A program made the position numbers and the translations under genes. A stretch of 63,967 nucleotides of DNA, the filler included. It is 13 parts of 13 records of this genome, joined end to end, with 100 filler letters (N's around TTAATTAATTAA, not from the genome) between each part and the next. Parts side by side here need not be neighbours in the genome. Positions count along the whole stretch, not along the records: positions 60,884 to 63,967 come from SRR15195285_7781; 12 more parts are not named here. One strand, written 5' to 3'. The notes under the pieces were generated by a model that ran no database searches, had not been told where the DNA came from, and saw nothing but the letters and a program-made list of their open reading frames with translations. Numbering within the stretch: position 1 is the stretch's first letter; each line of letters starts with the position of its first letter. This document shows, piece by piece, positions 46,381-63,967 of this stretch.

Positions 46381-49300
46381 TCACCCGACAGTGACAAAGC
46401 GCTTGCGCTGCGGAGGAGCTCTGCTCGTCTCTGCTGTTGCCCCAACCTCCTCGTGGAGACGGCTTCGCTCGTTCACCAATGCGACATCCAAAGCTACTTT
46501 TGACGGATCTCCAATAGCAACCATCATTCCTCGAAACGTTGCGTAGTTGACTGCCTGCTCCGGTGCTTGACCACCAGCGGGTTGCAGTCCCCCAATCGGA
46601 TTCTGAACAACACCACTCGTGCTGCTCCCGTCATCTGTGGCGTGTGATACGCCCAGCGCAGCCCCAGCTGCAAATGTCACGCTGTCTGGCGTACCATCTA
46701 CTTCAATGCTGTCGTCCGTCTTTATCTTCGCTGGAGCGAAGCGGTTTGCGACCGTAATCATGACCTGTGCCAACTCTTCCTGCTCTGATGCAGGCGTAAG
46801 ATCGGCATCAACAAGCCCTTCGCGAGTGAGGAGATACAGAAGGATCTTAGGCGTAATCGGCGGCTCCGCAAATCTCCCGTTTTCCCGAGCTACATCGCTC
46901 TCGACAATCCCGAACTGTAGCTCTGCTTCATACGCCGATTGTACAAAGGCCTTGTAGGCTTCCTCAAGCTCCTCGTCTCGATCAATTTTTTTCTTCTCCA
47001 GTACCATCATCTGTAGGAACTCAGGAAAACTGACGTCGCCCGATGCATCCGCGTCGAGACCGAGATCAGCAATCATCATCCGGATTATGTCTTCGTTCCG
47101 TATTCTCGACCCCCCAAGTGAATCAAAAACGAGTTGTAATTCTGAGACTTCAAGCATCCCAGAGCCGTCTTTATCGAAACAGGCAAATGTCTCAAAGTAC
47201 CGCAGAACGTCAGCTGTGGTCACACCTAGGTCTTGCTTGAGCTGATCGATTTGCTCGAGGTCCTCCGCTGAAAGATCTTTCAGCCCTTTCGTTACCCGTG
47301 ATTTTGCAGTGATATCCTCGTCAAACACATCCGCTGGTAGCTCGTCGTTTCTTTTGACGCTGAGTATTTTCGGCACCCGTATCGTCTGTCTTCCAGTAGT
47401 CCAAATGTTTTCCATGGCCTTTCCGATGTCTCCAGGCCCGGTCGTCTGAGTGCGCTGGAGCGATGCAAGCGAAGCCTCAGACATCGCTCCTTCTTGCGAG
47501 CCTTGTAGTCCTTCCACCTGGGCGTCATAATGTACTGACAATTTTGCCACAATCCCACCGAAGTCTGCTTGATGCACCTTTGCGATCTGCTCGCGAGCCT
47601 GTCTTTGGGAGACCCAGACTGAGATCACAAACAGCACCGCCAGAGATAGGACAACCAGATTTGGAGCAAGCTCAGACGAGCCAAGCTTCCACGTAGGCTG
47701 AGTCAGTGCGACGTTCGCATAGAGCACGCAAAGGAGCATCGTTAGCGTCGTCTGTTCTAGCGAGTTGTCCAGATCAGAGGCAAACGGTCTCTCCCAAGCT
47801 TGCAATAAAACGAATATTGCAACCACGAAAAATGGCAGCACTCGCCAGTCGATCTGACCACCACGCGTTCCTGGCACAGAAAGTGTTCCCCCATGCATGC
47901 TTCCGATCTGAAACACCGCAACAAGTGCTACGCGTCGCAGCATGAGATACGCCATCCATCCACGGTGCTTCGATGTAAAGATGTAAGCAACACGAGCCAT
48001 GGTCGTGAATCTCGGAGCCTTTGGCCCTGCCCGTCCATTTGTATCCACTGACTGAGCAGCATCATTTTGGCCCATCGTATCGCCCACTTTCCACAAGATG
48101 TAGGCAGGAAAGCCTGCTGTGAAGACGAGCAACAGAAGTACACTGATGACTTGAACACTGTAGGTCTCGCTGCACGCCATCTGCACGTCCAACGAGGAGT
48201 ACCATTTTCCGTTTATATACAAGCACGCCGTTAATCCAGGGATAAGTTTGAAGGCTTGCTTCGTTGCGCCCATATACCTGTTCCGTCCAATATAAGTATA
48301 AACAGCCAGAGACAAATGGCCACAATGCTCTGCAGAAATTAAACACGAATTTCTACCAACATTGGACCATATCGCTGATCAGTATTGTTCATCGTTTGTG
48401 TTCTTACGCGAACATGGCAACCTCGAGCACCATTCGAAACCGATGCTTGTGGATCATCTTCTTCTTCAAAATGATACAACTCAGCCTCCACCAGGTGAGA
48501 AGAGCTCTGGCCTCGGCCGCCTTGCTGCCATTAATCAGCCCAGCGTTATCGGGACGATGGAGAACGCGTAGGCGCAAGAAGTTTAAGTCTGTCGCGGCAG
48601 AATATTTGACCTTCAGTTTCTGCACTGCACGCGATGCCTTCCCACCATCCTCTGCGTCGTTGTTGGCATCATGCGTTGCATCCTCCACGTCTTGCAGTGC
48701 TACATCACCACCATTCGCAATTCTTCGAGCATACGAGGCCTCCTGCAGCTTTAGCACCACCGCTGAGCAAAAGCAGATATACATAGGGACCCAGACCGCG
48801 GACATAAGCCATGCACCTGTCGGACCGATGTCAAGCAGGCACTGCGGTGTGCCCTCCTCGGTTTCGACAGCAGATATCAGGTCCATGTTAATCAGTCTCG
48901 CAAGCCCATAGATAGCATTATCTCCTTTTCTATCGGCAAATAGTGCCAGGCTCTGAAAGAAGAACGTGAGGATGCCTAGTGCCGCTCCGTCTTCGTGCAC
49001 ATTGATTTGTCTCGCTTTGAAATCTACATTGGATCAGTGGAGTTGGACAGCAGGATTAGAACAGGAGAACAAACAAGGGCGTAGTCACTGTCCACTGGGA
49101 TGAGAGAACATGCGGTTTCAGCTATGCGCACGAGGGTGGGACACACCTAGGAACAGTGCGAACATAGCCCAACTCACGAGGAGCGCGAGAACGTACCACC
49201 CATTTGTTCCCTCACAGACTGCACACCGGTGGTCGGCAAGTTTCTGCATGGGCAGTCCGCGTGGGCTAGTGCAGGTTCCACACAATACACCAGAATGAGT

Positions 49301-51132
49301 ATGCGCGCAGACGGATCCGCGAATGCATTGCCCCGTAGTTGCTCCATCGTTTGCTTCACACAGCGCAGTCATTTCCGTCTGGTTCAAACTTGTTGCTGTG
49401 GACAGATTGACGTCTGGCAGAGCGAGCCGATCACGTTGCTGATGGCTACTCAGATAGAATCCTGGACAAATCACCGAAGAAGAGCAGTAGTACACAAAAT
49501 CGGATATTGTCGGCAGGCTTGTGCCCAGGGTGAAGCCCAGCTGTGCGTAGAGATCCTTCGTCTCCTTCCTCTCATCCAACGCAAGCTCGATTTTTGAGAC
49601 GCCTTTGTGTATCGACCAGTTGCCGATCCAAAACCCGGGGACTGCAAACATATTTGACCTCCCACCTGGCCGCCACAGACCACCAGGGCAAGTTACCCGG
49701 TTCGCGAGCTCTCCCAGTGTCCTCACATCACACGGAACACACCCTGGCGACGCTGATGGATACATGGAGGGATACAGACTGGCGTTGAAGTGATCGGTTT
49801 TGCACACGCATCCCGTCTGTTCGAGATTTGGCTCAGTCCGGCCGAGGCACGCCATGCAGTCCGAGCCGGCTGTCTGCGAATGGTGACCCTCGGGACAGGC
49901 TCTGCAGGTAGTGTCCCCGGGGTTGGCAGTGCGACCGGCCTCGCACGCCTCACAGCGCTCCGCCAGGTGCAAACGACTTGGCGCACTGCCTTCTGCGCAC
50001 AACATGCACTCGTCGCCTGCTGCGATCTTGCCGGCTGGACAAGCTTGGCAGTGATGGTCACCACTCTGCGACACGTGCCCGAACGGGCAAGCCTCGCAGA
50101 GCGTCGCTTCTGAATTCGGCGCCGTCCCGGCAGGGCAGCGGTCGCACGATCCCGCTGGCTCACATGTTTCTTGCGTGGCGTTGATAGATGCCACGCACGA
50201 AGGTGATTGGCCGCCATCACAGACGCGAGGGACATGCCCCGCAGGGCACGCGTGGCAGCTACCGAACAGCGTACTATAGTTGCCCGCAGAACACGGGCGA
50301 CATTGGCTGCCGTTTGTGGCCTCGCACCCGGGAGGGCACGGCTCACACTGTGACTGTTCACCGTTGGGTATCCTGCCGGCTGGGCAGGCATGGCAGTCTG
50401 ATTGTGTGGTTCCGGAGACGTGGCCTGCCGGACATTCCTCGCAAGCCGTACGGTTGGCACTCGGACGCTCGCCGGCCACACAGCGCACGCAGTACGCCTG
50501 GCCCTGTGACGGGACGTGTCCCTCGGGACACCCAACGCACAGCGACTCATGCGTGCTGTACCGCCCGGCGACGCAGTCCTCGCACTGCCCTGCCGTACTT
50601 TCCTTTCCCGGTGGGCACAGCTCGCACTCGCTCTGCTCGGTGTTCGTTACCCTGCCGGCTGGACAGGCGTGACATTCGGCCTCCGACGTGAGCGAGACAT
50701 GGCCCAGCGGACAGTCCTCGCAGGCTGTGCGGGCCGCGTTGGGCTGCTCGCCAGCCACGCAGCGCGTGCAGTAGCCCTGCTGCGCCGCTGGCACGGTCCC
50801 TTCCCCGCAGACGTCACACGCACCGTGCGTCAGTATGTTGCTGTACCGGCCGGCGGGGCAGCTCTCACACGTCGCGTTCAGCGGCGCCAGCGGCCGCGTC
50901 CCCGCCTCGCACAGCACGCAGCCGCCCTGCCCGTCAGCCGGCACCCTGCCCACCTCGCAGGGCACGCATGGCTGTGCGCCACCCCATGAAACCAACCCCA
51001 CGCTGCAGGCGACGCAGCCGCCACCCACCGGCTCGCTCCCCGGCGCGCACTGCAGCGGGCAGGAGGACGGTGGCCCGTCCTGGGCTGCGCCACGCTCGGC
51101 GAGCAGCAGCAGCCGCAGCAGCCGCAGCCGCA
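46381..51132 (-). CDS. 5'-partial receptor-like protein: GCC2/GCC3 (ephrin-receptor-like) Cys repeats, multi-TM domain, cytoplasmic calmodulin-like EF-hands; introns 49024-49146 and 48278-48407
   Basis: About 18 CxxCxxG repeats; HSGVLCGTC; FFQSLAL; WERPFASDLDNSLE; EF-hands DKDGSGMLEVSEL and DADASGDVSFPEF. Confidence 0.85.
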
Positions 51133-60636: not shown

Positions 60637-60883
60637 CGATCCCGTGAAGGCAGGGGACGGGGGCGCGCGCGCCGCACGCAGCAGAAGGCGGTTCTGCTCC
60701 GCGAGTCCGTCGCGCCGCCGGGGCGCGCGGGCCCGCGCTACGTATACATGTATCTCGACGCACCCGAAAGGACTTGACGACTTNNNNNNNNNNNNNNNNN
60801 NNNNNNNNNNNNNNNNNNNNNNNNNNNTTAATTAATTAANNNNNNNNNNNNNNNNNNNNNNNNNNNNNNNNNNNNNNNNNNNN

Positions 60884-60925
60884 GCAGCAGCAGCAGCAGC
60901 AGCAGCAGCACGGAGCAGCAGCACG
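60884..60925. repeat. (GCA)n trinucleotide repeat at contig start
   Basis: Read directly. Confidence 0.9.
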
Positions 60926-61315
60926 GAGCCGATTCTCGGGAGCAGCAAAAGTCCCGAACGGAGTGTTCAACTGCTGGCCCCCATTTTCGATTTTGGCCTT
61001 CGAGCTTCGTGCTTCGATCCGCCGTGACCAAAAGAATCGCGTGGTGAATCGTGTGTGGAGGACGCAAATCTCTGGATTTTAGAATTCATTTGCGATCGGG
61101 TTCTGCGAGTCGTGACGCTGAGACTCGCGTGGTGAGCCATGGGGGCTGGCGTGCTCACGCGCTCAGCCGCGGGAGCATGTTGGAAGCGACACGAATGACA
61201 GTCGAGCCAGCTGCGCGAGCTACGGATGGTGACGGCGACATCTATAGGCACTCACATTGCTAGGCAGAGTACGTTTCACTTGCTTGCTGCCTTTTCTGGC
61301 GGCAGGCCCAACAAT

Positions 61316-61425
61316 CACAGCACACACAGCACATCACAGCACACAGCACGGAGCACAGCACACAGCACGGCACACAGCATAGAACATAGCACAGCACACC
61401 ACAGCACAGCACACAGCACACAGAG
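61316..61425. repeat. Degenerate (CACAG)n pentanucleotide repeat
   Basis: About 20 imperfect CACAG/CACGG/CATAG units. Confidence 0.9.
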
Positions 61426-61747
61426 CAGGTAGGCAGGTAGACAGACGCACCAAGCAACGGGTTGTATGAGGGGCAATTTGAATCTGGGGAGGGGCAATTT
61501 GACTTCTTGGGGTGATTTCATTGTGTTGAGTCAGAACCCCCCTTTTCCCTACTACTGCCCAGGTCGCATGCACCAACGGCGTGGCTGCACCTCGCAGTCT
61601 GCAGCTCGCTGGCGATGGGGCTGGACGTGCAGTTATGGCGCTCTTGCGGGTGTGGAGGGCCTGCGCAGGCCATGCGGACTGGGCGGCGATGGCTGAGATA
61701 GCGCCCAGCACGAGTTTGTACAAATTCAGCTGCGGCCTGCGCGCAAA

Positions 61748-63806
61748 TCATCCGAGCTGCCCGCTAACGTTGCGCGAGTCGAGTGGGCCACCACCACTGC
61801 AACACTTCTGCACGTCGCATGTGTGCAGGATCGTCGCATTCGCGGATCTGGGGAACTCCGCAGCCCCAGTCTCGCCAGGTTGTCCAAAGCAGTCGTCGCC
61901 AGCTATTGGATTGTAGTGGGCAAGGGTGCTGTTCACCTTACCCTCGGTCGCGCAGTCCACACTCTTACAGCTTCGCTGGCAGCAACTCCTCACGTCGCAC
62001 GTATCCCAATCGGCATCACTGTCGCAGGCATAAAGTTGCATTCCTGCTCCCCACAGAATTCGATCAGGTCAGCATGCAGTTGCAAACTGTCCTGAAAAAG
62101 TGAGCTGCTTTCAAAACACCAGCTGTTCGCATACCAGGAAAGTAGATGATTGCAGCATAATCCAACTCTGCGTTGCGCTCAAGATATGGCCAGCATGTGA
62201 CTTTGTAGCAGCTTCGGTGAAAGACTCCGCTTGCACTCGGAGTGAACGTTCCGTTCTCCGTCGCGTTAGAATCCAAACCCGCCGAGTCAACCTGCTCTAT
62301 GGCTTGATCTTGATCAGTGTGTGGGAAAAAAATCACTTCAAGCGAGTCTACTACGGCAGCGACAACTGCTGTAAGCATTACCACCAGGGCCAGCCGCCAA
62401 AGTGTCGCTGCCCGCCTCGCCAGCGAGCCGACAACAGTTTCTGCGGGCGAGACGACCACGGCTTGAACGAGGTGCCAAGATGACACCGCATTACCACTCG
62501 CCACCGCGTATTCGGAGCTGTCAAGAAGAACGCCAACACGCGAGACACCTGCTGTCGCCGGAACCAGCACAGCTGTTCCGTCGTGCCGTCCTGACGGCAC
62601 CAGCAGCTGACCAGCCTGCGGAGCTGGGCAGTCACACGAACCTGCCTGGTTCGACACCTTAACTGGCACGACTCCTTGGTACGCCACCGTCTCGTAGCGG
62701 TGCCGCTCATGCGCAGGCGGCGCCGATCCTTCAACAACAGCCTTTCGCGACACGATCCCAAGCATGCTGCAATGTCGAGTGTTCCGAGAAATTCTCCCAC
62801 GGTGGAAACCCACCACATCTCCTTCACTGAGCGACAACTCCCCGTCGACCATGCGGTGCCACTCTGCAAAGTCACCCTGCGTGCTCACGAGCTTAACGCC
62901 GCCTTGGTCCGCTCTCACGACTGCACCCAGCTCAATGCTGTTCGGGCTGTCATGGGTCGGCTCTGTTCCAAACGAAATGAACTGCTGCCCTGCGTCAGCC
63001 CGAAGCAGCAGGGAGGGGGGTGCCACTTGGGAGCTCGATCGTGTGCGCGAATGCACGCTGAGCCCGCTCGTCGAGGCGAGAACTCCGGGCACTGCGTCGT
63101 CCTCAGGGACACTCGGGTACAACACAAACAGTCCGGCCCCGCGAACCTCTTCAATCGGTGCGTCTGCACCCTTGCGTCGAATCACCGCGTATTGCGCGAA
63201 CTTGAGCTTCTCACTGTCGCTGTTCTTCTCACGGTCGAAGCGAACGACACGACCGTAGCGCTTGCGCAGGCCCTGTTGCGGAGAGACCCAAATATCAGTC
63301 GCGCCCTTGCGTCCTCCGCTCGTGATCCACTTGTCGAAGCCCTTCTTGCGCTGGACCAGCGGCTGCTCCACAAAGATCTGGCGCGATAGGACGCTGTCGT
63401 CGTCCAACTGCGACGGTCGTGGATTGACGGCGTCCGCATCGTCGAACATCTCAAGGTACATCTGCGCCTCGATCATCCGCGCTTTATCAGCGCGCTGGTG
63501 TCGCTGATACCGGCCCCTAGCTTGCTTGCTGGACCGCTCGGGTTCGAGGTTCGATGGAGCAAGCGCAGCGCCATCGGTGCACACGTTCGGGACTGACTCG
63601 GCGCCGGCTGGCAGAGATCTCTGGCCGCGCACTGGCATAGCAGACGGCACCAGCGGGAGGTCCAGACGTTTATCAGCCAGCATGGCGGGCTCGAGTTCGA
63701 CTTGAGTTCCCTGTGCCACCTCTGCCACCCTTGAGTTCGTGATAGAAAGCGACGCGCCAGGCGGCGGCGGCCACTCTTCATGGGCATGCTCGTCCGAAAA
63801 CATCAC
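61748..63806 (-). CDS. Single-pass protein: basic N-terminal domain, Peptidase_G2/IMC-like autoprocessing domain, TM helix, Cys-rich C-terminus; intron 62044-62134
   Basis: QGDFAEWH..LSEGDVVGF..LGIVS..VAYQGVVPVKV..AGQLLVPSG; TM LALVVMLTAVVAAVV; GTATGC..GAGCAG intron joins the CDVRSCC/CDVQKCC exon. Confidence 0.7.
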
Positions 63807-63967
63807 GGGGCCGTCGTCGCTCGCATCGTCGCTGCGACTCCACCGGGGTGTTCAACTCCAGCTGGCCCCATTTTCGTTCGTCGCCGGTGGCCTTCGATCA
63901 TGCAGCGACTATCTACTAAATAGTACCAGAGGATAGGTCAGAGTGGTGAACTCCCAGCCTGAATTCA

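Follow-up and report, generated by a model that had tools for sequence, protein, structure and literature searches.

A candidate protist membrane-bound transcription factor combining a NAC-like domain with a phage-type Peptidase_G2-like domain

The window, the whole stretch of 63,967 nucleotides analysed here, carries on its minus strand (61748..63806) a gene whose product appears to be a membrane-tethered regulator that works as MYRF does but with different parts. We put the probability that the product is a type II (N-in) single-pass protist membrane protein with such a MYRF-like working at roughly 0.55. The in silico basis of this reading is the domain architecture, a Peptidase_G2 (G2) fold with its motif, a NAC-like fold, a predicted trimer, several topology indicators and sequence conservation. 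From N- to C-terminus the chain consists of a variable region, a basic domain with a NAC-like fold, a beta stalk, a G2 domain, a transmembrane (TM) helix about 10 residues further on and a Cys-rich ectodomain that is probably glycosylated. In the proposed mechanism, three chains would join via the stalk and the G2 domain on the cytosolic face of the membrane, and the assembled trimer would cleave itself at the G311-D312 peptide bond, with D312 and E315 as the equivalents of D692 and E695 in gp12, the pre-neck appendage protein of phage phi29. The cut would free a trimeric N-terminal fragment (residues 1-311) bearing the NAC-like domain, which would leave the membrane and most likely bind DNA in the nucleus. 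The variable receptor-like ectodomains found in the family suggest that a luminal or outside signal may be linked to assembly or cleavage, with gating by the ectodomain a possibility.

A first-pass annotation of this DNA, made by a model from the letters alone, had proposed a phage G2-type domain acting with MYRF-like logic, and the fold, the motif and the domain order reported below support that proposal. The elements it had picked out are all found: GDFAEW, placed at ~62859-62876, lies exactly at 62876..62859 (residues 311-316), the basic domain (RKKGFDKWITSGGRKG..LRKRYGRV) and the GDVVG, GIVS and GVVPVKV motifs are present in the open reading frame (ORF), the one TM helix corresponds to a single hydrophobic segment at ~467-489, and the Cys-rich tail is encoded in a second frame (61748..62041, the lower bound being its stop) that an inferred 91-nt intron would join to the first. 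Residues are numbered from a GTG codon (residue 1 = 63806-63804), and the parts of the protein are as follows.

63510..63803, minus strand: variable N-terminal region, residues 2-99; gapped and unconserved in an alignment of 37 sequences, probably disordered
63087..63509, minus strand: basic N-terminal domain, residues 100-240, with a predicted NAC-like fold; AlphaFold2 predicted local distance difference test (pLDDT) 89.9, predicted template modelling score (pTM) 0.83
62877..63023, minus strand: pre-cleavage beta segment, residues 262-310 (PPSLLLRA..FISF..IELGAVVRA..GGVKLVSTQ); three strands in the model, putative trimeric stalk
62859..62876, minus strand: GDFAEW, residues 311-316, with the predicted autocleavage site G311/D312; conserved motif and gp12 superposition
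62436..62873, minus strand: Peptidase_G2-like domain of the intramolecular-chaperone type (phi29 gp12 C-terminal), residues 312-457
62340..62408, minus strand: single TM helix, ~residues 467-489; Kyte-Doolittle 19-mer peak 2.32 at 474
61751..62339, minus strand: extracytoplasmic tail, residue 490 to the end (inferred intron inside the span); 12 Cys, 5 N-x-S/T sequons

Protein family, Peptidase_G2-like domain and predicted trimer

The protein belongs to a large family in which the domain order is conserved. A word-indexed search identifies 54 database relatives, and an alignment of 37 of 55 sequences, for which the longer ones were chosen, contains invariant residues in the G2-like domain and at its start (G311, D312, A314, E315, E328-G329, V331, G333-F334, A356-V357, E359-G360, P381, P404-S405-G406) as well as in the basic domain (S163-G164-G165, G168, W173). 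The existence of these relatives and of invariant positions indicates that the motifs are not due to chance. When run against 1.84 billion representatives, the profile of this alignment matches 2055 clusters at E<=0.001, 929 at E<=1e-10 and 146 at E<=1e-30, the weakest of which may score through their Cys-rich tails. We examined 179 relatives: to the 54 from the word-indexed search, the top 150 profile matches added 125 further sequences. The motif G-D-[FVIL]-A-E-[WYF] is present in 149 of them, in 113 cases as GDFAEW, and a hydrophobic segment lies at least 100 residues after the motif in 117 of these 149 sequences and before it in 2. Scoring with two local hidden Markov models (HMMs), one for the N-terminal domain and one for G2, yields the following architectures, many of the incomplete ones being short fragments.

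N-terminal domain, G2 and TM helix: 74 sequences
G2 and TM helix: 51 sequences
G2 only: 21 sequences
N-terminal domain and G2: 19 sequences
N-terminal domain only: 14 sequences

The N-terminal domain stands upstream of G2 in all 93 sequences that contain both, and the TM helix follows G2 in 125 of 165, its hydrophobic segment starting a median of 12 residues past the G2 domain (n=125). The family consequently has the MYRF-type order of DNA-binding-type domain, self-processing domain (here G2), TM helix and tail.

Structure comparisons, and sequence comparisons consistently but weakly, relate the central domain to the C-terminal fragment of gp12. The window protein matches PF11962 at E 0.032 (14.1 bits, curated cut-off 25), and 15 of the 37 aligned relatives match it at E<=0.1, the best at 2.5e-5. 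Three more matches are found among 34 distant relatives scanned, one of them at profile positions 162-224, which shows that the similarity extends beyond the motif. Alignment by hhalign pairs the phi29 gp12 stretch ..GGNTWSDFAEYFESLDGQVIETGYLVTLEKGKIRKAEKGEKIIGVISETAG.. with ..VKLVSTQGDFAEWHRMVDGELSLSEGDVVGFHRGRISRNTRHCSMLGIVSRKA.. (probability 46%, E 2e-4), and a profile of 22 G2 proteins, built from 403 G2 hits, aligns over 60 columns (probability 57.9%, E 1e-4). Both alignments are centred on GDFAEW paired with SD[FY]AEY (SDFAEY in gp12). D312 and E315 align with D692 and E695, which are invariant across the 22 G2 proteins, and the GDVVG, GIVS and GVVPVKV motifs lie within the domain at residues 329-333, 350-353 and 378-384. 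The model of the domain adopts the fold of the gp12 C-terminal fragment at a sequence identity of ~16%; in the superposition, D312 coincides with D692 of gp12, where the released fragment (3gqh) begins, and 3suc aligns from model residue 36, equivalent to gp12 685. In the phage protein the cut reportedly lies between Ser691 and Asp692 and requires ATP, and the enzyme is said to be classed as a glutamic peptidase; the Asp and Glu of the D692/E695 type are presumably the catalytic residues at the scissile bond. We regard the architecture and the homology to G2 as highly probable.

The G2-like region is predicted to form a homotrimer, the state characteristic of Peptidase_G2, although at the level of prediction only. 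The first-pass annotation had suggested a trimer model as a check, and three copies of residues 258-462 reach an ipSAE of 0.84 (runs 0.81, 0.86 and 0.84), the highest score among 3 controls being 0.00. Contact agreement between the runs is 73% or more, and pLDDT is at least 70. The predicted interface brings together GDFAE and the invariant AVVEGSAP of the neighbouring chain, and residues 45-56 of the modelled fragment lie within it.

Several observations weigh against a self-cleaving G2 trimer. No sequence method reaches its curated threshold, the hhalign probabilities being 46% and 58% over 52-60 columns. HMMER searches against PDB sequences return nothing relevant, with a chance match to thrombomodulin (E 0.78) for the protein and none for the profile, and a tblastn search of 50,697 phage records with the G2-like part yields nothing significant (best E 0.7). 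The domain model is moderately confident (pLDDT 77.5). The trimer score may reflect memorisation by the model of gp12, whose trimer has been solved. Its calibration, in which 21 of 30 solved one-chain pairs attained the mark and 0 of 23 single chains did, was made with two copies (dimers), whereas the prediction used three. Finally, E733 of gp12, nearly invariant in G2, aligns with R/K in the protist family. This loss, together with the existence of related phage capsid decoration proteins that share the G2 fold and do not cleave, would fit a domain that only trimerises or chaperones; the protein would then be a trimeric surface or endoplasmic reticulum (ER) receptor whose NAC-like domain signals at the membrane through a protein or lipid partner. 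We consider such a scaffold unlikely. In structural comparison, gp12 scores 2.5 Z units above the decoration proteins, and D-x-A-E occupies the exact position of the gp12 scissile bond, with the G, D, A and E of GDFAEW invariant in 37 and in 50 aligned sequences, a degree of conservation that would be hard to explain without catalysis. On balance, self-cleavage at G311/D312 is moderately favoured.

Basic N-terminal NAC-like domain

The fold predicted for the basic N-terminal domain resembles that of plant NAC domains. Its model (residues 100-240) consists of a long helix followed by a twisted antiparallel sheet, and its conserved signature reads RRKGxDKWxTSGGRKGAxExW...GVxKRYGRV...KFAQY, within which RKKGFDKWITSGGRKG covers residues 153-168 and LRKRYGRV residues 180-187. 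The first-pass annotation had named CG-1, NAC and WRKY as folds to look for in this domain. Ranks 1-4 of the Foldseek search are all NAC domains (ANAC019, SNAC1, ANAC and ORE1; E 0.03-0.09, template modelling score ~0.4-0.5). Sequence searches do not detect this relationship: PF02365 (NAM) has no match at E<=10 in the N-terminal domain of the window protein or in 12 relatives, it is absent from the Pfam matches of the whole window protein (E<=1) and of the 37 aligned relatives (E<=0.1), and a search of PDB sequences with the family profile returns nothing. Among predicted structures, the best ESM Atlas match of the domain scores 0.78, below lead level, and the viral structures of BFVD contain no match at E<=0.001. 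To our knowledge, the NAC domain is regarded as plant-specific.

Binding of DNA by the released fragment is a serious possibility that we rate just short of an even chance. A self-cleaving protein could also free its NAC-like domain for a role other than transcription, namely binding of RNA, chromatin proteins or another ligand, or action in the cytosol. We find this improbable, somewhat more so than the non-cleaving scaffold. The top 7 structural entries are all DNA-binding NAC domains, DNA complexes included, the domain is strongly basic (pI, the isoelectric point, is 9.99 for residues 130-232) with conserved R/K runs, and the closest working analogues, MYRF and the plant membrane NACs, are transcription factors.

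The N-terminal domain also occurs in other combinations. P0242, a soluble relative of 763 amino acids, combines a PARP catalytic domain (88-163, E 9.5e-9) with the N-terminal domain in duplicate (309-404 and 614-697) and has neither G2 nor TM helix. This set of domains indicates that the N-terminal domain is an independent module, in this protein paired with an ADP-ribosyl transferase. Twenty-three long sequences without an N-terminal domain match were searched again, resulting in a weak upstream match (E<0.01) in 10, a doubtful one in 7 and none in 6. Six G2 and TM proteins (P0232, P0245, P0258, P0278, P0280 and P0289) carry 280-420 residues before G2 without a match to the N-terminal domain HMM (E<=10); P0280 has 523 amino acids and the other five 1114-1773. 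Pfam has no match in the part before G2 of these five, which were the ones scanned, and the N-terminal 420 residues of P0258 give nothing usable in the ESM Atlas. In these six, the same release module may be fitted with a cargo domain of another kind.

Topology, gene model and origin

The topology indicators place the N-terminal domain in the cytosol and not in the lumen. RR precedes the TM helix, D/E follows it and no N-terminal hydrophobic segment is present. All five sequons lie behind the helix and none in the 466 residues before it, and all 12 Cys of the tail are likewise behind it. Pfam matches behind the helix in relatives are exclusively extracellular-type modules: among the 37 aligned relatives, Sushi in 4, EGF types in 4, 3 and 1, TNFR in 2 and LNR in 1; among the 34 distant relatives, HRM in 3, fn2 with ShK and PAN in 1 and EGF in 1, with 25 of the 34 lacking any match. 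Sequons, Cys and extracellular modules behind the helix indicate that the N-terminal and G2 domains face the cytosol, the usual working place of a phage assembly domain.

The gene model combines two exons, all coordinates referring to the minus strand.

62135..63803, minus strand: coding exon 1, residues 2-557 and the first base of codon 558; ORF, donor GT at 62134-62133
62044..62134, minus strand: inferred intron of 91 nt, GTATGC...GAGCAG (GT..AG); excision would join ..IIYFPG to MQLYACDSDADWDTCDV..
61748..62043, minus strand: coding exon 2, Cys-rich end of the extracytoplasmic tail; stop TGA at 61750-61748, ORF 61748..62041

The first ORF (62064..63806) encodes 580 amino acids from the GTG at 63806, and the next ATG, at 63803, agrees with P0002, the database copy of this gene, which begins MFSDE. 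Removal of 62044-62134, which the sequence suggests is an intron, gives a model of 654 amino acids with 0 internal stops. The joined sequence ..IIYFPG/MQLYACDSDADWDTCDV.. agrees with ..VIFLPGLQISSCGDGVDWKTCDV.. in the homologue P0009, which is uninterrupted at this site, and the exon 2 translation matches the P0009 tail (BLASTP E 7e-17, 37% over 89 amino acids). The database protein P0002 and its three closest relatives of intron-bearing appearance (P0004, P0005 and P0006) end at most 30 residues past the FFPG/FFAG site. These predictions have probably been cut short by read-through into an intron whose position is conserved. It tells against the spliced model that the joint is not seen in the RNA-library contigs and that one of them, from X12 (62015-62543), crosses the intron colinear with the genome. 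Contigs from the X12, X15 and X18 libraries cover parts of the gene; RNA libraries can hold DNA, so these contigs do not establish expression. No paralogue of the gene is found within the window.

The window is a chain of short contigs. Twelve TTAATTAATTAA six-frame-stop linkers (0 expected by chance), flanked by N, split it into 13 contigs, of which the one carrying the gene spans only 60884-63967.

3196, 10461, 16922, 23205, 28480, 32089, 35910, 39556, 45019, 51177, 55763 and 60828: TTAATTAATTAA linkers, each in an N run (e.g. 60784-60883)

Such linkers between contigs are artificial, as in a metagenome-assembled genome, so gene order across them is not real synteny. Synteny was dropped as evidence, since the neighbouring genes of eukaryotic type (RtcB, Kelch, PAP and others) sit in this chain of separate contigs. 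RtcB is uninformative about the organism as well, its relatives being 74-80% identical in animals, green algae and protists alike. Near-identical copies of the stretch, whole or in part, occur in marine or seawater metagenomes (19 of 23 rows, 14 studies). A (GCA)13 repeat opens the contig of the gene (60884-60929), and an imperfect CACAG/CACACAGCACAG array of ~108 bp (61316-61423) lies in the 3' flank, ~325 bp past the stop codon. On another contig, a Cys-rich ORF (49118-51028, minus strand) with ELAPOR1-like TNFR, NCD3G and ephrin-receptor-like repeats is unrelated to the gene.

With linkers depriving the gene of support from its neighbours and G2 otherwise found in phages and prophages, the 3-kb contig might be viral or bacterial and wrongly binned, and its product might belong to the virion, as an appendage or envelope component equipped with a G2 chaperone, but such an origin is very unlikely: six relatives bear the EukProt names COSAG01, COSAG02 and SAG22, a pattern scan of 2.9 million viral contigs (IMG/VR) gives 180 matches and none confirmed, neither the 50,697 phage records nor PHROGs (nothing below E 0.04, with matches in the TM and tail region) contain a relative, the gene has an intron-like interruption, and a TM helix and an ectodomain with EGF, Sushi, HRM or fn2 modules follow a domain that in phages is C-terminal and discarded. 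COSAG01, COSAG02 and SAG22 are Picozoa single-cell genomes according to a preprint (bioRxiv 10.1101/2025.05.06.652364).

Comparison with known systems

Taken together, these proteins of marine protists, Picozoa included, may make up an extensive and so far undescribed class of membrane-bound transcription factors in eukaryotes. A domesticated phi29-type G2 tail-spike chaperone would release the membrane-held NAC-fold DNA-binding domain as a trimer, and diverse receptor-like ectodomains would control this release. We propose this tentatively, at odds somewhat below even. We know of one established eukaryotic transcription factor, MYRF, that is freed from the membrane by a phage-derived self-cleaving domain. 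If the proposal is true, membrane-to-nucleus signalling would have recruited a self-cleaving phage assembly domain a second time and independently, and the use of a non-homologous phage domain (G2 versus S74) and a different fold (NAC-like versus Ndt80) would point to a recurrent evolutionary solution and not to a one-off event. Poorly known marine protists would gain hundreds of candidate signalling receptors or transcription factors (929 clusters at E<=1e-10), with ectodomains built from EGF, Sushi, TNFR, HRM, fn2, PAN and ShK modules. The NAC fold and its membrane-tethered use would, moreover, extend beyond the streptophytes and possibly predate them; the occurrence of a NAC-like fold in further lineages is relevant to how the NAC domain arose.

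In the literature searched, which covers subscription journals thinly, we find no account that joins Peptidase_G2 with a transcription factor or a membrane and none of a eukaryotic G2-domain membrane factor. Judged by titles and the openings of abstracts, the papers found that mention peptidase G2 or PF11962 concern phages, Bacillus or carboxypeptidase G2, and searches for 'pre-neck appendage' with eukaryote, transcription factor or TM terms return unrelated work. The words peptidase, PF11962 and phage are absent from the text of a 2026 survey of membrane-bound regulators in Nucleic Acids Research (PMC13294678).

The window protein resembles phi29 gp12 (PF11962; 3gqh, 3suc) in fold and in the D-x-x-E motif. 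The phage G2 domain is said to form the C-terminal end of the tail spike and to be discarded after assembly. In contrast, the G2 domain of the window protein would stay in the membrane, followed by the TM helix and the ectodomain, and the N-terminal part would be the product.

NAC proteins act as dimers, whereas the window protein is predicted to be a trimer and its N-terminal domain has no detectable sequence similarity to PF02365. With the plant membrane NACs ANAC013 and ANAC017 it has in common an N-terminal NAC fold, a membrane anchor (ER or plasma membrane) with a C-terminal TM helix and, as proposed, proteolytic release (PMC10242721, PMC9237531). The plant proteins differ in being tail-anchored and in depending on rhomboids or other proteases that cut them in trans, with neither an autoprocessing domain nor an ectodomain.

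MYRF and MYRFL of animals and Dictyostelium are the closest in plan, with a variable N-terminus, a DNA-binding-type domain, a beta stalk, a self-cleaving phage chaperone, a TM helix soon after and a luminal or extracellular C-terminus. MYRF is self-processed into two trimers, of which the N-terminal one enters the nucleus, and its catalytic residues are S578 and K583 (PMC3742443). Neither of its domains, Ndt80 and Peptidase_S74, is found by Pfam in the window protein at E<=1 or in the 37 relatives at E<=0.1, in line with the independent system that the first-pass annotation had envisaged. The two systems have no domain in common: MYRF combines an Ndt80 DNA-binding domain with an endosialidase-type intramolecular chaperone auto-processing domain that uses Ser/Lys, whereas the window protein combines a NAC-like domain with a gp12-type Peptidase_G2 fold that carries D-x-x-E, and the protist family further differs in its variable receptor-like ectodomains.
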